Assembly: GCA_903893485.1 (NCBI GenBank)
Contig: CAITMK010000012.1
Span: forward strand, 18,708-82,707
Origin: Candidatus Magasanikiibacteriota bacterium
GTDB lineage: Bacteria; Patescibacteriota; Patescibacteriia; Magasanikbacterales; 2-02-FULL-50-9b
Length of the DNA: 64,000 bases
Reading direction: 5' to 3'
Under the pieces are notes generated by a model. It was not told where the DNA came from. It made no database searches and saw only the letters and a list, made by a program, of their open reading frames with translations. Both the position numbers and the translations under genes were made by a program. Position 1 is the stretch's first letter. Every line of letters begins with the position of its first letter. Below, piece by piece: positions 1 through 58,514 of this stretch.

Positions 1-2036
1 TCGGTCGCATCTTCTTCAACGAAATTTTGCACGAACAGCTTCCTTGGTACAACGAAATTATTACCGTGAAGAAATTGGGTGAAATTATCCGTTTTGTTCT
101 CGAAAAAGTTGGTGAAATCGGCGCTGCTCAACAGCTCGATCGCGTGAAAGATCTTGGTTTCCGTTACGTTACCAAATCTGGTTATTCACTTGGTATGGAC
201 GATTTTCCAAAGCTCATTCACAAGGCAGAAATGCTTTCTGGTGGTGATCGCCGCATCGCAGAAATTGAAGTTCAATACGCTGAAGGTTTGCTTACCCAGA
301 ATGAACGTCACAGCAAAATTATTGAAGTTTGGACAGATATTAAAGATCGTATCGTAGCAGGTAACCGCGATGTGCTCGACAAATTCGGTCCAGTGTACGC
401 GATGATTGAATCGGGTGCTCGTGGTTCATGGGGCCAGCTCGCGCAGGTTATCGGTATGAAAGGTTTGGTGCAGTCTCCATCGGGTGACATTATCGAACTT
501 CCAGTTAAGGGCTCATTTAAAGAAGGTTTCGATGTGCTTGAATTCTTTATCTCATCTCACGGTGTGCGTAAAGGTTTGTCTGATACTGCACTTCGTACCG
601 CGAATGCAGGTTACTTGACTCGTCGTTTGGTTGATGTTGCACAAGACGTGGTTGTTTTGGAAGATGATTGTGGAGAAACAGCCGGCGTACTTCTTACTCG
701 TGCAGATTCTGAACAGATCGGTGAAAAACTTACCGAACGTGTACTTGGTCGTTTCTCAATTGCGGATATCAAAGTTCCAGGAGAAAAAACAATTATTACT
801 AAAAAGGGTACCATTATCAACGAAGAAGCATGTCGCCAAATCGATGCACATAAGGTTGATAACATTCAGGTTCGCACCGTGCTCAAGTGTCGCATGCCAA
901 AGGGTATTTGTGTGAAATGTTACGGTTGGGATCTTGGCCACAACAAAGAAGTTCGTCTTGGTCAGGCAGTTGGTATTATCGCTGCACAATCAATCGGTGA
1001 ACCAGGTACACAGCTTACCATGCGTACTTTTCATACTGGTGGTGTGGCAGGTACTGATATCACCAAAGGTTTGCCACGTGTTGAAGAATTGTTTGAAGCT
1101 CGCGCTCCAAAGAAAAAAGCAATCGTTGCTGATGTTGCAGGTCAGGTTGAAGTGTTGTCAGCTGATGGCCGCGTAATCGAATCACCAACCGGACGCCGCA
1201 TTTTCGAAGGCCGTCGTGGTCAGAAGATTGTGAAATTGCGTTTTGAAGGTGTTGATGAAGAACGTTACCGTTTGGAAGAAGGTGACACCGCATACATCAA
1301 GGACGGCAAAAAAGTTAAAAAGGGTGCCAAGCTCATGAACCGCGCAAGTGGTGAAACAATCGAAGCGCAGCATGCGGGTATTGCCAAAGTTGATGACGCA
1401 GCAGTGCGCGTTGTGTTCGAAGGTGGCAACGAAAAAGAATATATCATTCCAATTGGTTACAAATTAACTGTTCGCGATGGCGACATGGTTAATGCCGGTG
1501 ATGCACTTACCGAAGGTCACATTGAACTTCACGAGTTGCACGAACTTAAGGGTAAAGAAGCTGTACAAACTTATATCCTTAAAGAAATTCAGGATATTTA
1601 TTCTTCACAAGGTCAGAAGCTTAACGATAAACACGTCGAAATTATCTTGCGCCAAATGTTTAGCCGTGTGTATGTCACGGAAGCTGGCGAAACAGACATG
1701 ATTCCAGGTGAAATCGTTGAAAAGGCTCAGATCTTTGATGCGAATGTGAAAGTTAAAAAAGGCGAAAAGAGTGCGTTGGGTCGCGAATTGTTCCTTGGTG
1801 TTTCTAAGGTTTCACTTTCAACTCAGTCATTCCTTTCAGCTGCGTCTTTCCAAGACACCGCACGTGTTTTGATCGGCGCTGCAATTACCGGTAAAACTGA
1901 TTTCCTTGAAGGTCTTAAGGAAAACGTAATTATCGGCCGCTTAATTCCAGCAGGTACTGGCTACGAAGAACGCGCCGCAGCAGCATTAGCGCTGGGTGAT
2001 GAAGAAGTCGTAGAAGCAGAAGTCGCTGCGGAATAA
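1..2036 (+). CDS. rpoC: DNA-directed RNA polymerase subunit beta' (RpoC), C-terminal portion; 5' end lies upstream of the window
   Basis: The ORF runs off the 5' edge. Conserved beta' segments are present (MRTFHTGGVAG, trigger-loop/jaw regions, GRLIPAGTG near the C-terminus). Stop at 2036. Confidence 0.9.
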   Translation, partial: GRIFFNEILHEQLPWYNEIITVKKLGEIIRFVLEKVGEIGAAQQLDRVKDLGFRYVTKSGYSLGMDDFPKLIHKAEMLSGGDRRIAEIEVQYAEGLLTQNERHSKIIEVWTDIKDRIVAGNRDVLDKFGPVYAMIESGARGSWGQLAQVIGMKGLVQSPSGDIIELPVKGSFKEGFDVLEFFISSHGVRKGLSDTALRTANAGYLTRRLVDVAQDVVVLEDDCGETAGVLLTRADSEQIGEKLTERVLGRFSIADIKVPGEKTIITKKGTIINEEACRQIDAHKVDNIQVRTVLKCRMPKGICVKCYGWDLGHNKEVRLGQAVGIIAAQSIGEPGTQLTMRTFHTGGVAGTDITKGLPRVEELFEARAPKKKAIVADVAGQVEVLSADGRVIESPTGRRIFEGRRGQKIVKLRFEGVDEERYRLEEGDTAYIKDGKKVKKGAKLMNRASGETIEAQHAGIAKVDDAAVRVVFEGGNEKEYIIPIGYKLTVRDGDMVNAGDALTEGHIELHELHELKGKEAVQTYILKEIQDIYSSQGQKLNDKHVEIILRQMFSRVYVTEAGETDMIPGEIVEKAQIFDANVKVKKGEKSALGRELFLGVSKVSLSTQSFLSAASFQDTARVLIGAAITGKTDFLEGLKENVIIGRLIPAGTGYEERAAAALALGDEEVVEAEVAAE

Positions 2037-2053: not shown

Positions 2054-2080
2054 AAAAAGCCCCGGAAACGGGGCTTTTTT
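2054..2080 (+). terminator. Rho-independent terminator after rpoC (aaaaagccccg-gaaa-cggggctttttt)
   Basis: GC-rich 6-bp stem with GAAA loop followed by a T6 run. An identical 27-mer recurs at 3653-3679. Confidence 0.8.
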
Positions 2081-2104
2081 GTATTATGATATACTGTAAA
2101 TAAT

Positions 2105-3640
2105 ATGAAAAAAGTTCTTTCAAAAATAATACTTCTAAGTATTTTAATAATGCCTGCGGCTGCGTATGCAGATACAACAGCTGCTAATCCTGGAATTGGG
2201 TATAATGATTTTACCCCAGCGGATAAGCAGGCGCTTACCACAGCATTACCAATGGCTGGTTTTGCTCAAAAAATGATAAGCCCTGCACAAGATGCAGCGC
2301 AGTTACGTGCATGGCATAATCCACAGATTTCAAATGGCCGCGTTGCAGTAGAGGAAACGGTTGTAAATGTTGTTGAAAGATCAAAACTGATTGATTCGAT
2401 TAAAGAAATGGTGCAGAAAGTTGCCGATCAATATCCAGATATGGCAGCCGCGACATCATCAAGTGAGATAGTTGCGGCACACCCAGAATTTGAATCTAAG
2501 TTTGCAGAAGTGTTGGCACACACATTTACGTTAGATGAATTGCAGCTTGAACAGGGAAGCGAAAAGATTCAAATTCATGTTTACAACTTACATAATCCAA
2601 AGGAAGAGTTTGTAATTCCAGCTCAAGATCATGAGTTACACTTGGGTATGATTAGGGCTCCGACGTGGTCACTCGGCCCAGCTGGATTAGCATGGATAGA
2701 TAATACCGTAAGTACCGATTCAAAAACGGTAACACAGAAAATTAATTATTTTGATTTTAAAACTAATAAGAATCGCATTCTTTTAACGCAACAGAATAAG
2801 AGTGATTCACGGATTAGTAATATCCAGGCTCAATATCAAACAATTGATCTGGCTTTTAACGGCGCAAAAGCTACAAGCGGAACCATTTTTGATCTTGTTC
2901 ACAATAAATCGATATTGGTAAATTTACCATTAAAACCAATTCAAGGCTTGTCTACAGAATCAGAATGGAATATCAAGTTATTGCGTGGTGTTATGAGTTT
3001 TGTCTCAGGCTCACATTATATTGCAAATATTGAAAAAATCGATAAAAATAGTTCGACCGTTCGACTGTTAAATATAACGACGGGTAAAACGAAAAAAATT
3101 ACAATTCCAGGCGCAATAAGTGCAGCACGTATTTATGGTGAAAATTTAGTTGCGACCGTATCCGATGGCCCAACCAATTTACTGACAAGTGTGTGGGAAT
3201 ATTCAATGCAAAAAAATAAAGCAAGAAAAATTTCTGTAACAGATCAGGGCGCAAAAATCACAGCACTTGAAGGTGATGAAATTATATTATTGCCAGCTAC
3301 TCGCACGGATAATTTTATTTTGCAGCTCATTGTAATGAATCGTTTGACAGGCAAAAACAAGGTGATGGCATATCCAAGTTCCACATATTCAATGTATAGT
3401 TATCGCGTTGAAACCGGTATTCAAAAAGCAACGGATGATTTGGCGAAACAATATGGCGTGGAAAATGTTTCGTTGAACGGTTATACAACAGGCGACTTTA
3501 TTGGTGTGCAAAAACCATCTTCAATTAAGACAAGTGATATTCAAGGTACATACTGGGCGCAACAGCTTGCAAGTCTTGAAAAAATGAAAATAGATTTGAT
3601 GAGTAGTATTTCAGCACTAACAATTTATTCAGCAAAATAA
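2105..3640 (+). CDS. hypothetical secreted protein (511 aa) with N-terminal signal peptide
   Basis: N-terminus MKKVLSKIILLSILIMPAAAYA looks like a Sec signal. No recognisable catalytic motifs. Preceded by TGaTATACTG at 2086-2095, 9 nt before the ATG. Confidence 0.6.
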   Translation: MKKVLSKIILLSILIMPAAAYADTTAANPGIGYNDFTPADKQALTTALPMAGFAQKMISPAQDAAQLRAWHNPQISNGRVAVEETVVNVVERSKLIDSIKEMVQKVADQYPDMAAATSSSEIVAAHPEFESKFAEVLAHTFTLDELQLEQGSEKIQIHVYNLHNPKEEFVIPAQDHELHLGMIRAPTWSLGPAGLAWIDNTVSTDSKTVTQKINYFDFKTNKNRILLTQQNKSDSRISNIQAQYQTIDLAFNGAKATSGTIFDLVHNKSILVNLPLKPIQGLSTESEWNIKLLRGVMSFVSGSHYIANIEKIDKNSSTVRLLNITTGKTKKITIPGAISAARIYGENLVATVSDGPTNLLTSVWEYSMQKNKARKISVTDQGAKITALEGDEIILLPATRTDNFILQLIVMNRLTGKNKVMAYPSSTYSMYSYRVETGIQKATDDLAKQYGVENVSLNGYTTGDFIGVQKPSSIKTSDIQGTYWAQQLASLEKMKIDLMSSISALTIYSAK

Positions 3641-3652
3641 TTTTTTGAAGGT

Positions 3653-3679
3653 AAAAAGCCCCGGAAACGGGGCTTTTTT
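3653..3679 (+). terminator. Rho-independent terminator, exact copy of the 2054-2080 terminator
   Basis: Same 27-nt sequence aaaaagccccggaaacggggctttttt. Confidence 0.8.
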
Positions 3680-3717
3680 GCATTGAACATTTTTTGTGTT
3701 CCTGGTATTATTATGCC

Positions 3718-4434
3718 ATGTCAGGGCATTCAAAATGGTCAACAATTCAAGCATCGAAAGGCGTTGCAGATAAGCGTCGTGCGGTTATTTTTGCAAAATA
3801 CGCGCGGCTAATTGCAATTGCTGCCAAAGAAGGTGGCGGGCCCGATCCTGTGAAAAATTTTAAATTACGCGTTGCGGTCGAAAAGGCGCGCGGCGTGAAC
3901 ATGCCAAAAGAAAACATTGATCGCGCAATCGCCAAAGGCGCGGGCACTGGCGGCGCCGATGATGTCGAGTCAGTTATGTACGATGGTTTAGGGCTTGGAG
4001 GCCGTCTTGCGATTTTAATCGAATGCGCAACAAACAACACAAATCGTTCTGTAGGAAATGTTAAAAATGCGCTGGTAAAGCAAGGCGCCGCAATGGGTGC
4101 ATCGGGCAGCGCAGCATGGATGTTTGATCGCCGCGGCGTGATTCGCGTTGACCAAAAAATTTCAGAAGATCAAGAACTGCAATTAATCGACGATGGCGCG
4201 GTTGATTTTATTGAAGAAGATGGCGGTACAACCATTTATACGCTCACTGAAAAATTTTGGATTGTGATGCAGCGGTTGGCAGAGTGGGGAATCGCAACGC
4301 AATATTCAGAACTTGATTGGGTTCCAAAAAATCCAGAACATTTTACCGAAGAAGAAAACGAAAAAATTCAAAAAATTATTGAAGCATTGGAAAGCACCGA
4401 AGACGTCGAAAGCGTTTACACAAATGCGGGATAA
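3718..4434 (+). CDS. yebC: YebC/PmpR family DNA-binding transcriptional regulator
   Basis: MSGHSKWSTIQ...KRRAVIFAKYARLI...GGGPDPVKNFKLRVAVEKARGVNMPKENIDRAI is the characteristic YebC N-terminus. Start chosen at the MSGHSKW Met. TGgTATTAT lies 6 nt upstream. Confidence 0.85.
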   Translation: MSGHSKWSTIQASKGVADKRRAVIFAKYARLIAIAAKEGGGPDPVKNFKLRVAVEKARGVNMPKENIDRAIAKGAGTGGADDVESVMYDGLGLGGRLAILIECATNNTNRSVGNVKNALVKQGAAMGASGSAAWMFDRRGVIRVDQKISEDQELQLIDDGAVDFIEEDGGTTIYTLTEKFWIVMQRLAEWGIATQYSELDWVPKNPEHFTEEENEKIQKIIEALESTEDVESVYTNAG

Positions 4435-4440
4435 AAAAAT

Positions 4441-4479
4441 ACCGGATGGCGCACGAGTTATGTGCGAACATCCGGGTTG
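4441..4479 (-). terminator. Rho-independent terminator for the minus-strand GC-rich cassette A gene
   Basis: accggatg...catccggt stem, followed by a T7 run when read on the minus strand. Confidence 0.6.
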
Positions 4480-4496
4480 TGGCCAAGGCCGATGGC

Positions 4497-4850
4497 TCAG
4501 GTGATGATCCGTTCGTTGGTGACCCAGTAGAGCACGCGCGCCCATTTGGACGACGCGTACATGAGGAAGAAACACAGCAACGCGATCGGCAGTTGCCAGA
4601 TCAAAGCGCAGCAGCCAACGGCCACGAGGAGCCAAATCGCCAACATGGCAAAGCCGTTGTTTTGCAGTTCGTGCATGATATTCCAGCCGCACATGATGCC
4701 GCCGAACAGCCCGACCGCTTTGCGCAGTTCCGGAATGTCGTCGACCGTCATGTGTTTGGTGGTCATCATGATCATGTACACAATCACGATGCCCGTAAGG
4801 CCAATAAATCCGTCCCGCAAAAAGCGGTCCACCTTCCGATACAATTGCAT
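4497..4850 (-). CDS. small integral membrane protein (118 aa, ~3 TM helices), GC-rich cassette A
   Basis: Start MQLYRK sits 5 nt behind a GGAGGAAGG Shine-Dalgarno. Hydrophobic stretches IGLTGIVIVYMIMM, AVGLFGGIMCGW and FAMLAIWLLVAVGCCALIWQLPIALLCFFL. Local GC is ~60% against a ~42% background. Confidence 0.55.
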   Translation of the reverse strand: MQLYRKVDRFLRDGFIGLTGIVIVYMIMMTTKHMTVDDIPELRKAVGLFGGIMCGWNIMHELQNNGFAMLAIWLLVAVGCCALIWQLPIALLCFFLMYASSKWARVLYWVTNERIIT

Positions 4851-4960
4851 GCCTTCCTCCCGAGGTTCCCGCCCAAAATGATTTAAGGGGGAAAGCCATT
4901 GTCTCACATCTGTGGGCGTTGTCAAGAGTGGTACTTTTTTGCTACTGTGTAAGTACAAAT

Positions 4961-6916: not shown

Positions 6917-6952
6917 ATTCATCATGTGGCGCGACCACGATGGAGGTTTCTA

Positions 6953-7708
6953 ATGGATTTTGAACGGTCTCATCAAATTCGCCTTGCGCTCGAAGCTGCA
7001 TTTGTGGCAGCGCAAGGCAAACCTGTGGCAATGATCGTGGGTATCGGTGACGTCGGCAAGGGTGTTGCGGCAATGATTCGGCGCATGTCGCCCTTGCATC
7101 ATCTAGTCCTGGTGAACCGGGGCGCTCAGCGGCTTGCCGCGGTTCGTCTCGATCTGGATCTCAGCGACACGCCAGGCGGGCCAATCAGCACCATCGAGCT
7201 CGATCCGGGCAACCCGGCCGAACTTGATGTGCTCAAAGGCTGGCTGCAGCAGACGGTGAATCAAATTGATTTACTTGTATTGGCTGCGGGCTGCGCGGTG
7301 CCGGATGAGGGTAGCGAGCCAGCGTACGCGGCGAATCGCCCAAACTGGCAGCTCAAGACCAGCGTCATCGACGCGGTCGCGCAGTACGTCCACCACCTCG
7401 TTGTTGTGGGGTCCATGGTCACGCATTTGCCGGAGGCGGATGTACAGAGCCAGATCGGCTATCGCACGAGCATGCGGGAGCTTGAGACTCGCGTGAGTCA
7501 GCTGCAGGTTTGGATGCGTGGCGAGAATGTCAATCCATTCCTGGCTGAGCACGTGTTCGTCTGGCCGTGCCAGCTCGTCCAGGGCGCGACCGCCGAGAAG
7601 TACAAGGGTCTCGGTTTCGTGCATGAGAGTCAGGAAATTTGGACGCCTCAGGCGCATGCCGAGGCGACGCTCTGGCCTTTCATCCGTGGGTGGTGGCCGC
7701 TGCAGTAA
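6953..7708 (+). CDS. hypothetical NAD(P)-binding Rossmann-fold protein (SDR-like), GC-rich cassette B (251 aa)
   Basis: GGAGG Shine-Dalgarno 6 nt upstream of the ATG at 6953 (the ORF track starts at an in-frame GTG at 6926). Glycine-rich AMIVGIGDVGKGVA motif and an IDLLVLAAG (NNAG-like) segment. ~63% GC. Confidence 0.5.
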   Translation: MDFERSHQIRLALEAAFVAAQGKPVAMIVGIGDVGKGVAAMIRRMSPLHHLVLVNRGAQRLAAVRLDLDLSDTPGGPISTIELDPGNPAELDVLKGWLQQTVNQIDLLVLAAGCAVPDEGSEPAYAANRPNWQLKTSVIDAVAQYVHHLVVVGSMVTHLPEADVQSQIGYRTSMRELETRVSQLQVWMRGENVNPFLAEHVFVWPCQLVQGATAEKYKGLGFVHESQEIWTPQAHAEATLWPFIRGWWPLQ

Positions 7709-11890: not shown

Positions 11891-11926
11891 AAAAGATACT
11901 CGTCACCGCGGCGAGTATCTTTTTGT
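11891..11926 (+). terminator. Rho-independent terminator
   Basis: aaaagatactcg-tcaccgcggc-gagtatcttttt. Confidence 0.75.
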
Positions 11927-18028: not shown

Positions 18029-18872
18029 CAGTTATAACGCCGCCGAGCGTGCGTAGTTCATTCAATGCTTTTTTGGCCTCATCGCTTGTAGGTGGTTTGC
18101 CGTGCCACAAAAAATTATTTTCCATGAAGTCCACGCCTTTGCCTGGAATGGTATGCATCATGATTAATGTTGGGCGTTCATGAATTGCCGCAGCTTCTTC
18201 GCAGGCATCAATAATCGCACGCATATTGTGGCCATCGGCTTCAATCACATGCCAGTTAAAAGCCTCATATTTTTGGCGCAGTGGCTCGAGCGGCATGATG
18301 GATTCAGTGGTTCCGTCGATCTGAATATTATTACGATCCATGATCACGGTTAGATTTGATAAACGATATTTTGCTGCACACAAAATTGCTTCCCAGGTTT
18401 GGCCTTCTTCTTGTTCACCATCGGAAACCAAACAATATACGCGTGCCGTGGAATTATCCATGCGTAGGCCAAGCGCCGCACCAACTGCTTGCGAAATTCC
18501 TTGGGCTAGGGGACCACCGGTGTTTTCAATGCCAGGAAGTGAACCCAAATGAGGATGACCTTGTAATCGAGAATTTAATTTTCGTAATGTTTTAAGTTCA
18601 TCCGGTGGAAAAAATCCACGTCGTGCAAGTGTGGCATACCACACGGGGCAAATATGTCCGTTTGATAAAAAAATTCGGTCGCGCAGCGGATCTTGTGGCT
18701 TGCTTGGATTTACATTTGCAACCGCAAAATATAAAGCCGTAAAAACATCAGCCATGCCGAGTGGCCCAGCGCTGTGGCCAGAGCCAGCTTCAACCAACAT
18801 CGCAATAATATTTTGGCGAATTTGGTTTGCGTGCGATTCAAGTTCTGCAATTGCAGCATCGGTAAGGAGCAT
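18015..18872 (-). CDS. transketolase, N-terminal (TPP-binding) subunit
   Basis: SGHSAGPLGMADV TPP-binding motif. Start chosen at MLLTDAA; TGcTATACTG is 10 nt upstream. Confidence 0.8.
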   Translation of the reverse strand: MLLTDAAIAELESHANQIRQNIIAMLVEAGSGHSAGPLGMADVFTALYFAVANVNPSKPQDPLRDRIFLSNGHICPVWYATLARRGFFPPDELKTLRKLNSRLQGHPHLGSLPGIENTGGPLAQGISQAVGAALGLRMDNSTARVYCLVSDGEQEEGQTWEAILCAAKYRLSNLTVIMDRNNIQIDGTTESIMPLEPLRQKYEAFNWHVIEADGHNMRAIIDACEEAAAIHERPTLIMMHTIPGKGVDFMENNFLWHGKPPTSDEAKKALNELRTLGGVITGEHQ

Positions 18873-18911
18873 AGTCCTTACAGTATAGCAGTTTGTTGCG
18901 CGCTGCTCCAC

Positions 18912-33813: not shown

Positions 33814-34254
33814 CCACATTGACAAAACCCATTTTTTCTGGTGTAATGCGCGGGCTACGAAACCAGGACGAGTGCCCTACGGGGAGGAAAGTCCGGACAC
33901 CCTTTGCGGGGCAACCCGCATCGTCGTGGTGCTGGCTAACGGCCAGGCATTCTGCGGGGTATAAACGACGCGTCGCAAGACGCCCGCGAAAACCTTCTGA
34001 CGGAAAGTGCCACAGAGACAATTAAAGTTTTGACCTCGGTCAATTCCAAAGGTGAAAAGTGAGGTGGTGTACGGGCGCAAGCTCATGCTACACCTCTTTG
34101 CCCGGGCGCGAGTCCGTGGCAGTGGCAAACCCCACCTGGTGCAAGTGCGTATGCACGCATCGAGCGACGTAGTAATACGGCGCCAAGACAGATACTCGTC
34201 ACCGCGCGCCTCAAAACGCACGGGACAAAATCCGGCTTATATGGTTTTGTAGTG
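33814..34254 (+). ncRNA. rnpB: RNase P RNA (bacterial type A-like)
   Basis: Universally conserved P4 segments GGGAGGAAAGTCCGGAC (33883-33899) and ACAAAATCCGGCTTAT near the 3' end. 5'/3' termini can pair as P1 (ccacattgacaaaacccat / atggttttgtagtg). TGtATACC box upstream. Confidence 0.8.
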
Positions 34255-34282
34255 AAATCCGCCTTCGGGCGGATTTTGATTT
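34255..34282 (+). terminator. terminator after rnpB (aaatccgcc-ttcg-ggcggatttt)
   Basis: Perfect 8-bp stem with tetraloop and T-run. Confidence 0.75.
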
Positions 34283-34379
34283 TCCATAAAATAAAAAAAT
34301 CGCCGAGACGATTCCCGCGTGAGTCAAGCTCTCGCGAAAACCGTCCCGGACGATGGCGTGGTTGCACGCCTTGTGCGCG

Positions 34380-34832
34380 TCAGCGGTCGATGACTTGCTT
34401 CCAGCCCGGGTGCGAATTCGCCGCCGCGTCTTGGATGCTGTTGTCAGAGGCACTGTCGTGTGCCGGACCGTTGGTCTTGTTCACGATGATTTGCGGCGTA
34501 TCCGGCGGCGGGCCCTGGTTGGCCGTCAGCGCATGGTTGTTGCTCACGGGGTTGTTGACGGCGATGTGCACGCCGAGGTCGTCGCGCAGCAGCCGCGCCT
34601 TGTGGATGAACTGCGCTTCCGTCGCGCCGTCCGTGGTGATGCACGCCAGGCTTTCCGCCAGCTTCCCGCCGTGGTCCAGGTTGACCAACGCAATCGGGAT
34701 GTCGGCGACGACGCCAAGCTCCTTGTCCGAAGACGGCGGCGACTGGGCGAGCGGCGCGGCAATGGCCGTCATGGCGAGCAGGGCGCTCGTCGCGATGGTC
34801 ATCTGCAAGAAACGAATGAGCTTGTGGCCCAT
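34380..34832 (-). CDS. hypothetical secreted protein (150 aa), GC-rich cassette D
   Basis: GGAGGT Shine-Dalgarno 5 nt before the ATG. Signal peptide MGHKLIRFLQMTIATSALLAMTAIAAPLAQ. ~62% GC. Overlapping plus-strand ORFs look like GC-driven artefacts. Confidence 0.5.
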   Translation of the reverse strand: MGHKLIRFLQMTIATSALLAMTAIAAPLAQSPPSSDKELGVVADIPIALVNLDHGGKLAESLACITTDGATEAQFIHKARLLRDDLGVHIAVNNPVSNNHALTANQGPPPDTPQIIVNKTNGPAHDSASDNSIQDAAANSHPGWKQVIDR

Positions 34833-34970
34833 GGGTACCTCCAGGAAAGTTGTCACTGAGTACTCCTTAAACCGCAAAGGGCCGGGTTAAGGTTGCGGCA
34901 ACGCACCGCATGAAAGACAATATATCAGTCTGCGGGGTAGTCGTCAAGTATGTTATACTGTGGAATATTT

Positions 34971-50583: not shown

Positions 50584-50943
50584 ATGGAACTTCACCCAGA
50601 AATCCGCCCGGGCGCTTTCATCCGCGTACACCAGGCGATCAAAGAAACAACGCCAAAAGGCGAAGTAAAAGAACGTATTCAGATTTTCGAAGGTTTGGTG
50701 CTTAAGCGCTCACACCGCAAGGAAATTGGTGCGACTATTATTGTGTACAAAAAATCAGGCACTGTTGGTGTGGAAAAAATCTTTCCACTCAACTCTCCAA
50801 CTATCAAAAAGTTTGAGTTTGTACGCCAGTACAAAGTAGCCCGTGCAGATATCTCATTTGCAAAGGACACTCACAAGAAATTGAAAGAATTGCGCGCTCC
50901 AGGAACCGCTAAGCCAAAAGCTAAGGTTGCAAAAGCAAAATAA
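50584..50943 (+). CDS. rplS: 50S ribosomal protein L19
   Basis: IQIFEGLVLKRSHRKEIGATIIVYKKSGTVGVEKIFPLNSP matches the conserved L19 core. Confidence 0.85.
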   Translation: MELHPEIRPGAFIRVHQAIKETTPKGEVKERIQIFEGLVLKRSHRKEIGATIIVYKKSGTVGVEKIFPLNSPTIKKFEFVRQYKVARADISFAKDTHKKLKELRAPGTAKPKAKVAKAK

Positions 50944-50956
50944 TTTTTCTAGAAGA

Positions 50957-50990
50957 AAAAGCCCTGGTGAAAGCCGGGGCTTTTTTGTAT
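50957..50990 (+). terminator. intrinsic terminator agccctgg-tgaaag-ccggggc + T6
   Basis: Stem-loop followed by a T-run. A related copy with compensatory base changes is at 51764-51800. Confidence 0.75.
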
Positions 50991-51002
50991 ACTGATCAAC
51001 AT

Positions 51003-51752
51003 ATGATTTGGGATCCGATCACTCTAAAACAAGAAGATGAGCTGCGCGCTGCGACAAACAGCTGTCTAGCTGCAAATAAAAAAACGCCAACGATTGCATT
51101 GCGCGTTGCAGGAGTAGACATTGTCCTATTTGCGATATTTCTTTTTTGGGCTCACACAAGTACACTCACCTCTGATGTAATTTGGGATATAAGCATTTTT
51201 TTATTATTTATCCCCATCATGTGTTTGGCTGCTTGGGTGCAATCAAATGATAATGTGACTTTTATGACCGTGCGTCTTGCCCACGGTTGGGATGTCATCA
51301 CCAATCCAGATAAACAGCGATTCCGTGATTTAAATGCTAAATATAATTTTTTGATACCACGTGATACTCTAAAAAGAGGTGAGGGGGCTTACGTATGCCG
51401 TAATGAAATTTGGGGTAAGGCATCGCAAACAAGTTTCTTTTCGTGCCAAATTGATTATGCATGCGGTGGTAACAGAATCACAGCTGCTGAATCTCGACAA
51501 TTACTTTTTGTAAAATTACCTGCGCCACAAAAATCAATAAAAACAGATGGTGATTTTGACATTTCAATCCTGAGTTCTGCAGCTCAGGCGGCATGGAATG
51601 ATTTGACTGCACAATGTGGTAAGACCAAATTTATTATTGAAAATGACCTTGCGGCAATTAGCACGTTAACGGGATTCCTAAAGTTAGGGACACCGGAAAA
51701 AATTGAAGAAGTGTGTGTTAAAATTTTGGCATTAGCTGCTGCGCTTGTATAA
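51003..51752 (+). CDS. hypothetical membrane protein (249 aa)
   Basis: TGTATACTG box 9 nt upstream of the ATG. Two TM segments near the N-terminus. Confidence 0.5.
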   Translation: MIWDPITLKQEDELRAATNSCLAANKKTPTIALRVAGVDIVLFAIFLFWAHTSTLTSDVIWDISIFLLFIPIMCLAAWVQSNDNVTFMTVRLAHGWDVITNPDKQRFRDLNAKYNFLIPRDTLKRGEGAYVCRNEIWGKASQTSFFSCQIDYACGGNRITAAESRQLLFVKLPAPQKSIKTDGDFDISILSSAAQAAWNDLTAQCGKTKFIIENDLAAISTLTGFLKLGTPEKIEEVCVKILALAAALV

Positions 51753-51763
51753 AGATCTGATTC

Positions 51764-51800
51764 AAAAAAGCCTTGGTGAAAACCAAGGCTTTTGCTTTTG
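51764..51800. terminator. bidirectional terminator agccttgg-tgaaaa-ccaaggc
   Basis: Perfect stem between convergent genes with flanking A/T runs. Confidence 0.7.
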
Positions 51801-51820: not shown

Positions 51821-54193
51821 CTAAAATTTATACATTGAAATCTTAGCCACATTAATAAGTCCTTTCATAAAGTCTGACTTATACTGCTGAAGCGTTTTAA
51901 TTGCGCGCGCAATTTCAAGTGGATCATTTTTTTGAACAGGCGCTTCGGTCATAGTTACTTTGTCATCTTTCACTTTGGTAACAATTTGATTTCCCGCAAC
52001 GCCGATGTAAGTCGAAGACTTGAAATCAATTGCGTATTGCAATGGATCGCCGCCAGCAAGCGGAAGAATTACTAAAGAATCTGGTTGACTAATCTTAAAG
52101 ACTAAACGGGCACCATCAAATGAAAGCAGCTCTCGCTCAGAATGCTTTTGAAGAATTGGCGGTAATGGAATTTCAGTGGTTACGAAATTTTTTAGGTCAA
52201 CTTGTGCATAGGTATTGCCATCACTCATGACTGCGGTATCCCCATATAGTTTAATTGTTCTGATCTGTCCGTAAAAAGGGTACCCCAGTTCTTTGCCCGT
52301 ATTCATGTCGAGCACATGCAGCGCCGGTGCGTTTGTGGTGGTATCAAAAAGTGCCCACGCAATATAATGAGAACCGCCCACCACTGTTGTCAGCATTTGA
52401 TTTTCTCCTACATTATCCGATTGTAGCTGCTTAACGAGCTTACCGGTTTTTGTATTCCAAGCGCTATATGCCGTAATGCCACTTTTTGAATGAGTTTCTA
52501 ATATTAATGATTGATATTCGGCATGCACGGTAAAGCTTAAAAGATCTGCCATGTTGGCTGCGGTGATTTTTTGTACGACCGTATCTTTTTTTGTGGCAAA
52601 ATCGTACCAATGTACCTCGCCGGTTGTTATTTTTTTAGCGGTTACCACACGAAACCATGCGAGGCCGGTTGGACCAACACTCCAAGGTTTCGTGGAATTA
52701 AGTTGCGGCATCCCGATTGTTGGAATTGTAAAATTCTTACCGGTACTTATTTTATGTACAATGATTGATTGAGTGGAAGTTACTCCGCCAAAGGCATTCG
52801 CTATGAGCGCGCCACCTGCACTAGCGACTGTCCCCATTAGTTTATTAAAAACATCGGGATGGGTTTTCAAGTAATCATTTGCGGCCGCTTGAGTTTTAAT
52901 ACTTTTTGGAACCGTTGCACTAAGTTTTTGTAAGCCGCTGGTAAGCGTATTAAAAAACTTTGTAGTATCTTTTGCCGAGACCAGTGGTACGTTTGCAGCG
53001 ATCACATCATTGGCTACATCAAAATCCCCGTACTCTGCGATTGTCCCTTTGGGACCTGGTGGAACAGTCCACAATGAAACAGGTAAACTTGAAGCCCCGG
53101 GAATATCGCTGGTCTGCTGAAGTTTTTGTAGCGTCGCATCATCAATGCTGTTGTCACATTGAATCGTTTTGTATCGAAGGCCATTTGAGTCTGCCCAATA
53201 GATATATGGACCGGTTAGAACCGCATGACTTGCATTTTCAATGCCATCAGCCTTAGTAAAATTTGTAGGACAAGACATCTGCGTTGACTCGTTGAAGAAA
53301 TTATATACAGAACCTTGTTTCCATAGCAGGCCAGAATCACCTGAAAGAAAATATGAAGCTTTCGCGTCATTAATTACAACAGGAGCAATGGTTTTGGTAT
53401 CCATGGCGACTCGGTAATAACCATTATTCAAGTACAATGGATTTTCGACGTAGAATGATGACTTATCTGCCATGGATAAGAATTTTAAAACACCCTCTGT
53501 CTGTATGAATGCCGTATAATCAATTGTGGTCGCTGCGGTATCGACAAATCGGCGAAATACGATTGTGTGATTATTTATATCGCTCGCTGCGATATAATCA
53601 GGCCCGATAACAAAATTTGTATTGCCCGCTTGATCTACCACGTCAACATCAGGATCTTGTAGAAAATCAGCAACACTTTGCGTCTTATTTTGCGCAACAT
53701 CAAGGACTTCATACGTTTGGGTGTCCGTACTATAGACTGCAAACTTTCCATCTACGGATGCAGCAACCTCACCCAAAAGAGTATCTGATGATTTTGCGAT
53801 AAGTTGCGAGACTTTTTTACTTGTAAAATCGTATTGATATATGCCGGATGTTGCATCTTTGCTTCCCCAAATGACGGTGTTGTTTGTAATCGCTGCGTTT
53901 GAGAGCTCGTATAGCGGATCTGAAATTGGCGCAAAACTACCGGTGCCTACATCGGTCATCATGAGTTGGCCATCTGGATGAGTTGAAACAAATGGGGATT
54001 GGCCGCTAGGACTTGTGAACCAAACAACATGTGAACCAAATGCAGCCCAATCGTTTGCAGGGTCCTGTTGAAATCCACTTTGCGTTCCGTAGCCAGCAAC
54101 CGGAGTTGCAGTAGTTGCGGCAATTGCGGATGCCGTTGGCAATAATAATGAAATAACGGTGAAGAGCGAAACGAAAGAGCTTTTTTTAAACAT
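51821..54193 (-). CDS. hypothetical large secreted protein (790 aa)
   Basis: Signal peptide MFKKSSFVSLFTVISLLLPTASAIAA. Repetitive beta-rich composition. Confidence 0.5.
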   Translation of the reverse strand: MFKKSSFVSLFTVISLLLPTASAIAATTATPVAGYGTQSGFQQDPANDWAAFGSHVVWFTSPSGQSPFVSTHPDGQLMMTDVGTGSFAPISDPLYELSNAAITNNTVIWGSKDATSGIYQYDFTSKKVSQLIAKSSDTLLGEVAASVDGKFAVYSTDTQTYEVLDVAQNKTQSVADFLQDPDVDVVDQAGNTNFVIGPDYIAASDINNHTIVFRRFVDTAATTIDYTAFIQTEGVLKFLSMADKSSFYVENPLYLNNGYYRVAMDTKTIAPVVINDAKASYFLSGDSGLLWKQGSVYNFFNESTQMSCPTNFTKADGIENASHAVLTGPYIYWADSNGLRYKTIQCDNSIDDATLQKLQQTSDIPGASSLPVSLWTVPPGPKGTIAEYGDFDVANDVIAANVPLVSAKDTTKFFNTLTSGLQKLSATVPKSIKTQAAANDYLKTHPDVFNKLMGTVASAGGALIANAFGGVTSTQSIIVHKISTGKNFTIPTIGMPQLNSTKPWSVGPTGLAWFRVVTAKKITTGEVHWYDFATKKDTVVQKITAANMADLLSFTVHAEYQSLILETHSKSGITAYSAWNTKTGKLVKQLQSDNVGENQMLTTVVGGSHYIAWALFDTTTNAPALHVLDMNTGKELGYPFYGQIRTIKLYGDTAVMSDGNTYAQVDLKNFVTTEIPLPPILQKHSERELLSFDGARLVFKISQPDSLVILPLAGGDPLQYAIDFKSSTYIGVAGNQIVTKVKDDKVTMTEAPVQKNDPLEIARAIKTLQQYKSDFMKGLINVAKISMYKF

Positions 54194-54273
54194 AATACCG
54201 CCAGTATACTAGAGCTAAATAAAAATAAATAGCCATTGTTGGTTTATGATATTATTTGTATACTGATCGACAT

Positions 54274-55038
54274 ATGAAAAAACTCATCGCCTTATTGAGC
54301 ATTATTTCAGCATTTACATTTTGTTCAACCGCGCTTGCCTCTAATGGATATCCTGCACATACCTATACGTATGTGAATGATTTTGCCAAAGTGCTCACAC
54401 CAGATGACATTAATACATTGCAATCGCAGCTTTCAAAATTTGATACTGATAATGATGTTTCAATTATTGTGGCGACCGTGAATTCAATTCAAGATTATCC
54501 AACGGGCGACCAAACAATTGAATCATTTGGAATGAATTTGTTTAATAACTGGGGCGTCGGCAGCGCAAAAAAAAATAATGGCGTACTTATGTTGGTTGCG
54601 GTTAAAGATCGTAAAATTCGCATTCAACTTGGTTCGGGATACGGATCATCGTATGATGCTACGATGACGAAAATTATTGCGAGTGACATGTCGCCATCTT
54701 TTAAAGCGGGGCAGTTTGGTGCAGGCTTCAGACTCGGCGCTGCATCGGTTATGAATGTGGTGGGGGTTGCAAATCGTGTGCTAACACCAGAAGAGAAAAA
54801 AGCGGCAATGGTAAAAACTTATGTAGTCATGGGCGGTATCGCAATCTTATTGATTGTGCTTATTGCCGCGGCGATCTCCGCCTTTCGTTCGGGCAAAACA
54901 GGTTGGGGTTGGATATTTTTGGCAGCTATTGGCGCGATAATTTGGTTTTTATTTCGATTAATGCCAAACGGACGTGGTGGCGGTGGCGGATATGGCGGTG
55001 GCTCGTCATCGGGTGGTGGTGGATCAGGTAGTTTTTAA
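54274..55038 (+). CDS. TPM-domain (YgcG-like) protein with C-terminal TM helix and Gly-rich tail
   Basis: TPM-like core YVNDFAKVLTP...VSIIVATVNSI...GVLMLVAVKDRKIRIQLGSGYG, then a TM helix and GGGGGYGGGSSSGGGGSGSF tail. TGTATACTG box upstream. Confidence 0.55.
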   Translation: MKKLIALLSIISAFTFCSTALASNGYPAHTYTYVNDFAKVLTPDDINTLQSQLSKFDTDNDVSIIVATVNSIQDYPTGDQTIESFGMNLFNNWGVGSAKKNNGVLMLVAVKDRKIRIQLGSGYGSSYDATMTKIIASDMSPSFKAGQFGAGFRLGAASVMNVVGVANRVLTPEEKKAAMVKTYVVMGGIAILLIVLIAAAISAFRSGKTGWGWIFLAAIGAIIWFLFRLMPNGRGGGGGYGGGSSSGGGGSGSF

Positions 55039-58336: not shown

Positions 58337-58410
58337 GGGCCAGTAGCTCAGTTGGTGAGAGCACGGTGCTTATAACGCCGGGGTCCTGGGTTCGAGTCCC
58401 AGCTGGCCTA
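58337..58410 (+). tRNA. tRNA-Ile (anticodon UAU)
   Basis: Acceptor GGGCCAG/CTGGCCT (G1·U72), D-arm GCTCAGTTGGTGAGAGC, anticodon stem CGGTG/CGCCG with loop CTTATAA, T-arm CTGGGTTCGAGTCCCAG. CCA not encoded. Confidence 0.7.
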
Positions 58411-58412
58411 TA

Positions 58413-58446
58413 TAAAAATACCACCCATTTGGGTGGTATTTTTATA
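58413..58446. terminator. bidirectional terminator aaaataccaccc-attt-gggtggtatttt
   Basis: Perfect 8-bp stem flanked by A- and T-runs. Confidence 0.8.
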
Positions 58447-58514
58447 TTTGTTTAAGGCTGGGATTCGAAGGGTTGTCGCGCCTCCGCGCGAAGCGAATCC
58501 CAGCAACCACAAAA

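Follow-up and report, generated by a model that had tools for sequence, protein, structure and literature searches.

An exactly repeated terminator hairpin brackets a lineage-specific gene between rpoC and yebC in an uncultured member of the Patescibacteria

The repeated hairpin between rpoC and yebC

We analyzed a 64-kb stretch of DNA, hereafter the window, from an uncultured member of the Patescibacteria (Candidate Phyla Radiation), in which a gene encoding a 511-residue protein lies between rpoC and yebC and is bracketed by two identical copies of a short hairpin. The guanine plus cytosine (GC) content of the window is 46%, and the best named relatives of its YebC and its ribosomal protein L19 come from Candidatus Magasanikbacteria metagenome-assembled genomes (MAGs), with 80% and 76% identity, respectively. 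The locus comprises the following features, with distances given in nucleotides (nt).

27–2036, forward strand: 3′ part of rpoC (RNA polymerase β′ subunit), ending with the TAA stop codon at 2034–2036 (Pfam RNA_pol_Rpb1_5, E = 6e-62).
2054–2080, forward strand: T1, the predicted intrinsic terminator of rpoC (folding; orthologous hairpins in relatives).
2087–2095, forward strand: TGATATACT, a box resembling an extended −10 promoter, which ends 9 nt upstream of the ATG of the 511-residue gene (read from the sequence).
2105–3640, forward strand: the lineage-specific 511-residue gene (open reading frame (ORF) without a Pfam or NCBIfam match; absent from the site in relatives).
3653–3679, forward strand: T2, identical in sequence to T1 and located 12 nt past the stop codon of the 511-residue gene (sequence and folding).
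3683–3711, forward strand: promoter-like site of yebC, TTGAAC-17-TATTAT with an upstream TG, its −10 element ending 6 nt before the ATG (consensus scan).
3718–4434, forward strand: yebC (YebC/PmpR family), the ancestral right-hand neighbor of T1 (Pfam TACO1_YebC_N and Transcrip_reg; neighborhoods of homologues).

To the right of yebC follow a 146-residue ORF, ruvC, and genes for an amine oxidase, a short-chain dehydrogenase, a racemase, LexA and a PIF1-type helicase.

An earlier reading of the same DNA, made from its letters alone (the original prediction), had described an ORF at 2105–3640 lying between two exact 27-nt repeats, and both observations hold. The window contains two exact matches to the 27-mer AAAAAGCCCCGGAAACGGGGCTTTTTT (2054–2080 and 3653–3679), and no third copy is present at up to three mismatches (100 shuffled sequences contained no match either). 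The exact identity of the two copies in fact reaches 28 nt, and 31 of 32 positions match between 2054–2085 and 3653–3684, the mismatch being a T at 2082 and a C at 3681. No other exact repeat in the window is as long: the runner-up, of 20 nt, lies within uvrA, and shuffled sequence yields 14–18 nt. When the direct repeats shared by the two flanks of a gene were compared for 51 genes, the 511-residue gene scored 28 nt against a median of 6 nt, and the second-best gene reached 11 nt with a low-complexity sequence; among the genes checked, it alone is bracketed by such a repeat. The TAA+TTTT context that had been pointed out upstream of each copy is present (2034–2040 and 3638–3644), but this heptamer has 67 copies in the window.

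The same arrangement is found in three assemblies from different samples, two of which span both junctions. A one-off assembly error is unlikely because L001 and L130, two assemblies obtained from other samples, are 100% identical to the window over the two repeat copies. The repeat is a real, non-random feature of this genome.

Each copy folds as a 6-bp stem made up entirely of G–C pairs (GCCCCG/CGGGGC) closed by a GAAA loop, with an A5 tract before it and a T6 tract directly past it (2075–2080 in T1, 3674–3679 in T2), and the stem is extended by A/T pairs. With their flanks, T1 folds at −24.2 kcal/mol (z = −5.0) and T2 at −21 kcal/mol (z = −4.8), and they start 17 nt past the rpoC TAA and 12 nt past the stop codon of the 511-residue gene, respectively. 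The GC-rich stem, GNRA tetraloop, A-tract, T-tract and location 12–17 nt past a stop codon are those of canonical bidirectional Rho-independent terminators, as is, for T1, the conservation of an orthologous site with compensatory stem changes. From these characters, T1 and T2 very likely work as ordinary Rho-independent terminators. They are structurally no different from the canonical kind, and the sole oddity is the complete sequence identity of two adjacent terminators. Strong hairpin terminators are otherwise sparse in the window (about 8) and their stems are varied.

A hairpin with a GAAA or AAA loop and A/T flanks lies 16–19 nt downstream of rpoC in five related lineages (L121, L122, L124, L127 and L128), and across the six lineages compared the stems differ by compensatory changes, 6 of 14 pairs showing two-sided changes. 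T1 is the ancestral rpoC terminator, orthologous to the hairpins of these five lineages. L121, the closest relative found (its YebC is 80% identical), carries the 16-nt stem-loop of T1 plus one extra T in the A-tract, and T2 agrees with the window's version of the hairpin rather than with that of L121.

Gene order in the relatives indicates how the locus changed. The empty arrangement rpoC–terminator–yebC is found in L122/L123, L124–L126 and L128/L129, the yebC ATG lying 39–60 nt past the hairpin, and in L122 rpoB–rpoC precedes yebC. The 511-residue gene is absent from the site in all relatives examined. Since three related lineages have rpoC, the terminator and yebC adjacent, the 511-residue gene is a lineage-specific insertion, so that synteny bears out the original prediction on this point. 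The spot is also occupied in two other relatives, where L121 carries an unrelated 311-residue gene with its own, different terminator and L127 carries four unrelated genes. Because different relatives hold unrelated genes there, the spacer just past the RNA polymerase operon is a gene-gain hot spot. Excising one repeat together with the 1.57-kb insert leaves rpoC–17 nt–T–38 nt–yebC (T being the single hairpin), a layout that fits the spacers of the relatives (16–19 nt from rpoC to the hairpin and 39–60 nt from the hairpin to yebC) and corresponds to the geometry of an insertion with target duplication.

We therefore give a probability of about 0.7 to T2 being a copy of T1 that is linked to the gain of the gene. 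The duplicated rpoC terminator is best read as the mark of a lineage-specific gene gain at a hot spot. Its parts are ordinary, the manner in which they were combined is a minor curiosity, and present evidence speaks for an isolated case.

Two further observations concern this region. The insert of L121 (439–1374) has a GC content of 55% against 46% in its host contig, and three of the four inserts of L127 (384–3172) have 56–59% against 50% in the contig, the fourth having 45%; import from higher-GC donors is therefore suggested for the GC-richer inserts. Between yebC and ruvC, which overlap directly in L122, L124 and L128, the 146-residue ORF of the window (4446–4886) has neither a family match nor flanking hairpins and is another lineage-specific insertion.

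Expression signals, protein family and a second hairpin pair

The 511-residue gene has its own promoter-like box, ORF and terminator, and would thus form a self-contained, monocistronic unit. T1 would end the rpoB–rpoC transcript, the TGnTATACT box, placed nine nt past T1, would drive the 511-residue gene separately, and T2 would end its transcript 12 nt past the stop codon, thereby shielding the yebC promoter, 4 nt downstream, from read-through. The position of the box predicts that the mRNA is probably leaderless or near-leaderless.

Many gene starts of the window and of its relatives, that of lexA among them, carry a TATACT box followed by an ATG 5–10 nt later. Its longer form TATACTG-N6-ATATG heads the 511-residue gene and two genes situated downstream of rplS, which encode a 249-residue and a TPM-domain protein, and it recurs with one mismatch at a neighboring gene for a 790-residue protein. 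With at most one mismatch allowed, five sites are found versus 0.06 expected (2087–2107, 50988–51005 and 54259–54276 on the forward strand, 54191–54208 and 18870–18887 on the reverse strand), and TATACT boxes upstream of an ATG also occur in L121, L124, L127 and L128. We considered that the motif could be a shared "cassette promoter" and rejected this interpretation because the TATACT–ATG arrangement also heads lexA and other conserved genes of the relatives. The distribution of the boxes instead suggests that leaderless mRNAs are widespread in this group.

The 511-residue protein belongs to a sparsely populated family. A word-indexed search of 5.8 billion proteins returned nothing beyond the protein itself, and HMMER, run exhaustively against 1.84 billion representative proteins, returned four relatives, bringing the family to five proteins at E ≤ 0.001, the weakest of which is doubtful. 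One relative is the 790-residue protein of the same window, which shares 23% identity with the 511-residue protein over 360 columns (BLASTP, E = 1e-16), in agreement with tblastn, and which the exhaustive scan recovered as P0145; the part that is distantly paralogous is its C-terminal half. The two proteins are members of a very small Patescibacteria family with signal-peptide-like N-termini, within which the motifs WS(L/V)GP(A/T)GLAW and (H/N)(W/Y)(Y/F)DF recur. The N-terminus of the 511-residue protein, MKKVLSKIILLSILIMPAAAYA, looks like a Sec signal peptide. AlphaFold2 produced an unusable model from the single sequence (predicted local distance difference test (pLDDT) score of 34) and a pLDDT of 45 from a four-sequence alignment, both models being β-rich. 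Foldseek matched them to Kelch-type and designed β-propellers with template modeling scores of just 0.2–0.35, and we thus take a β-rich, propeller-like body as a mere hint from these models. No further family members were found in the Joint Genome Institute metagenomes, and the phage and viral collections searched for an origin contained no matches.

The 511-residue gene has the lowest GC content in the window (37.5%, and 28% at third positions), which could be taken as a sign of recent import. We rejected this interpretation because the homologue P0144, encoded in another genome (L136, 6001–7470), has the same two values in a contig with a GC content of 44.8%, so that the bias is a family trait rather than evidence of import. 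P0144 is encoded between nifU and a ferredoxin gene, and no hairpins flank it in L136. Precomputed Pfam matches further indicate that an intein containing a LAGLIDADG endonuclease domain interrupts a NifU-type gene of L136 (4074–5900).

A second pair of hairpins lies downstream of rplS, where the following features were identified.

50584–50943, forward strand: rplS, ribosomal protein L19 (Pfam Ribosomal_L19, E = 2e-21).
50955–50986, forward strand: T3, predicted rplS terminator, GCCCUGGU-GAAA-GCCGGGGC with A and T tracts (folding; a hairpin at the same position in relatives).
51003–51752, forward strand: lineage-specific 249-residue gene with hydrophobic stretches, starting 9 nt past a TATACT box (absent from L133 and L134).
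51766–51793, either strand: T4, predicted bidirectional hairpin between the convergent 249-residue and 790-residue genes (folds on both strands).
51821–54193, reverse strand: 790-residue gene with a hydrophobic N-terminal segment (BLASTP, tblastn and exhaustive search).

T4 folds at −20.0 and −18.6 kcal/mol on the two strands. As first described, T3 and T4 differ by stem changes that preserve pairing: four substitutions, comprising one double change (C–G to U–A) and two changes of a G·U into an A–U pair, leave all pairing and the GAAA loop intact. Their core similarity of 0.80 is the highest for a non-orthologous pair among 190 hairpin pairs, all others reaching at most 0.68, which makes an older T3/T4 duplication plausible from the sequence. 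The further proposal that the 249-residue gene records an older one-gene event stands only in part. In L133 and L134/L135, the convergent genes rplS and cca share one bidirectional hairpin, and in L131/L132 one unrelated gene separates them; in the window, four additional lineage-specific genes lie there (the 249-residue, 790-residue and TPM-domain genes and a 207-residue gene). The locus is therefore not a clean one-gene insertion, and T4 is shared with the 790-residue gene. The spacer past rplS is, by gene order, a gene-gain hot spot in this group of relatives.

Short stretches are shared between the two loci. The 15-mer AGCAAAATAATTTTT is common to the 3′ ends of the 511-residue gene and rplS (3631–3645 and 50934–50948), its position with respect to stop codon and hairpin being the same at both sites, and the 16-mer CGGGGCTTTTTTGTAT is common to T1 and T3 (2069–2084 and 50975–50990). 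These matches may reflect chance or a trace of terminator-module exchange, the 15-mer being probably a coincidence.

Proposed origin of the second terminator copy

To account for the repeat, we propose that the ancestor would have had rpoC, a single hairpin T and yebC in this order, and that a promoter-plus-gene unit of about 1.57 kb would have entered the spacer beside T, which would have been duplicated in the same event. The likeliest route would be that incoming, possibly circular DNA bearing the identical hairpin recombined with the chromosomal one through a single crossover. Such Campbell-type integration on about 28–32 nt of identity would leave one copy of T on either side. We favor a single event because the geometry fits and because a two-step route needs an extra, precisely placed event; the 28-nt repeat, unique in the window and far above chance, also supports this reading. 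The specific one-step recombination at the hairpin is a tentative proposal to which we give slightly less than an even chance.

Several points weigh against such an event. Homologous recombination would have had to operate on about 28–32 nt of identity, which is close to its lower limit. Protein and metagenome searches found no donor, circular form or strain-level empty site, and a metagenome scan for the T2/yebC junction returned nothing, the other assemblies of the species being 100% identical to the window. The inserts of L121 and L127, located at the same spot, are not surrounded by a duplicated terminator. The repeat ends almost exactly at the functional edges of the hairpin, an outcome that selection or convergence would produce equally well. 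Finally, the hairpin core is identical in the window and in L121 though the flanks have diverged beyond recognition, and the identity of T1 and T2 therefore provides no date for the event. A survey of the literature on duplicated terminators at insertions yielded nothing pertinent.

Two separate steps could also have produced the locus: either the gene came first and the rpoC hairpin was later copied to its 3′ end, or a tandem T–T pair arose first and received the gene between its copies, with short-patch gene conversion maintaining their identity. This scenario would explain why the repeat is confined to the functional hairpin plus 4–5 nt, it is compatible with a core that can persist long unchanged, as in the window and L121, and the 16-mer shared by T1 and T3 and the 15-mer upstream of T2 and T3 hint at the module exchange it invokes. 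We nonetheless consider it rather unlikely, as it requires two rare events, one of them precisely placed, no tandem rpoC terminator is present in any relative examined, and no exactly repeated terminator pair or other sign of terminator copying is found in 110 kb of the relatives' loci.

Alternatively, the 27-mer, with its GC stem, GNRA tetraloop and A and T tracts, could be a near-optimal generic terminator that the inserted gene acquired or brought along by chance. A scan across 185,579 genomes detected the exact 27-mer in at least 119 loci of unrelated bacteria (the matches listed include Mesorhizobium, Marinobacter, Flavobacteriales, Acidovorax and a Saccharimonadales MAG), indicating that it can arise independently, and GAAA-loop, A/T-flanked hairpins are the usual terminator style of the relatives. 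The original prediction had held that presence of the 27-mer dozens of times across the genome, with no association to gene gain, would refute it, and the outcome points in both directions: the 27-mer does occur widely, but in bacteria unrelated to one another and with one copy in each stretch (up to 8 kb), none of the foreign loci harboring a second one. A generic 27-mer does not predict two adjacent identical copies where the other terminators of the lineage differ. Indeed, the stems of those terminators are quite different, non-orthologous similarity not exceeding 0.68 save for T3/T4, and the identity of T1 and T2 runs one base past the T-tract, after which three of four bases match. By a rough inference, at least 119 matches in 185,579 genomes also amount to a very low frequency per terminator. 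Convergence is accordingly an improbable source of the pair.

The original prediction had also raised a cassette-like insertion, with T3/T4 recording an older event of this kind. As a recurrent process, this would involve a trans-acting recombinase that uses the hairpin as the attachment site of a mobile single-gene cassette, as in integron cassettes or in cis-mobilizable elements with attachment sites at their ends. Where rpoC, a core gene, ends, direct repeats do flank a compact promoter–gene unit, the non-orthologous hairpins most alike in our comparison bracket a second gene past rplS, and both sites are gene-gain hot spots among the relatives. Our data do not support this mechanism, since (i) Pfam scans of the neighboring genes, which covered part of the genes in the window, detected no integrase or transposase near either locus, (ii) there are no terminal inverted repeats at 2081 and 3652 beyond the hairpins and no attC-type architecture, (iii) the window contains no third copy and other inserts at the same sites, including those of L121 and L127, lack repeats, (iv) P0144 is encoded without flanking hairpins, (v) the promoter motif of both genes is common across relatives and (vi) the second gene is inside a four-gene insertion. 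We consider the cassette very unlikely. Equally speculative, and a shade less credible still, is the broader idea that terminator hairpins of small-genome Patescibacteria serve as recombination sites at which compact promoter-plus-gene units for surface proteins are added beside core-operon terminators, the hairpin being duplicated each time; such units may be excised as circles, T1/T2 would be recent and T3/T4 older, and this route of gene gain would be terminator-bounded and either integrase-independent or trans-acting. The least credible explanation is an assembly artefact threading a foreign 1.6-kb segment into the contig via a collapsed 27-mer: contigs of other samples do break nearby (the first base of L001 lies 38 nt upstream of T1, and a 1.6-kb contig begins within T2), but the agreement of the three assemblies, the paralogue of the 511-residue gene on the same contig and the length of the repeat, shorter than the usual final k-mer sizes of metagenome assemblers, leave it next to no probability.

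Comparison with known systems places the favored single-event insertion closest to, yet distinct from, several types of element. Genomic islets and cis-mobilizable elements (CIMEs), the latter being remnants flanked by attachment (att) sites and devoid of an integrase, occupy hot spots between core genes. The locus resembles them in having, at the 3′ end of a housekeeping operon, a lineage-specific gene flanked by core genes, short direct repeats and different cargo at the same spot in different relatives. It differs in consisting of a single 1.57-kb gene with no integrase or trace of one, in that the repeat is the terminator hairpin itself and in that the other inserts at the rpoC–yebC spot lack repeats. 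No integrase-bearing element using the same attachment site was found in the window, in the relatives' loci or in phage and viral collections.

Integron cassettes likewise comprise a single ORF bounded by palindromic, hairpin-forming repeats, but attC sites span about 57–141 nt with R″/L″–L′/R′ boxes and a GTTRRRY core, whereas here a plain 27-nt hairpin lacks such a core and is followed by GTATTAT at T1 and GCATTGA at T2. Moreover, the gene has its own promoter, no intI is present nearby and there is no array, the neighbors being rpoC, yebC, ruvC, the amine oxidase gene and lexA (the scan extended to part of the window genes). Transposons share with this locus a direct target duplication on both sides of the insert; theirs is typically 2–15 bp, far shorter than the 28 nt observed here, which come with neither terminal inverted repeats nor a transposase. 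We rejected transposition, integron-type and casposon-like routes given the lack of inverted repeats, of a recombinase among the genes scanned and of attC architecture. Dispersed palindromic repeats of the REP or MITE type have many copies per genome; in the 64 kb of the window the 27-mer has two, both at the 511-residue gene.

Other window features and biological meaning

Several features elsewhere in the window were recorded. A tRNA-Ile gene whose UAU anticodon is seldom seen in bacteria has a 17-bp, A/T-flanked hairpin directly downstream (58337–58447). A class A bacterial RNase P RNA (33856–34255; Rfam, 125.5 bits) has its own terminator hairpin at 34253–34278. A 17-mer is common to a terminator at 11894 and position 34190, and we attribute it to chance because the second copy is within the RNase P RNA gene. 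Two ORFs without a Pfam match (6926–7708 and 34252–34890) have a GC content of about 61% in this 46% window, and the latter, directly past the RNase P RNA gene, reaches 77% at third positions. ORFs of similar size and likewise without a Pfam match follow ruvC in relatives.

The rpoC–yebC locus is a small, well-resolved case of how a streamlined, uncultured bacterium adds a gene for a surface or secreted protein while leaving its essential neighbors undisturbed. The 511-residue gene fits exactly into the space that separates the rpoBC terminator from the yebC promoter, insulated on either side by the same terminator. Our analysis also marks the spacers past rpoC and past rplS as gene-gain hot spots in this group. 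If terminator duplication proved recurrent, this would suggest hairpin-directed recombination as a route of gene gain.

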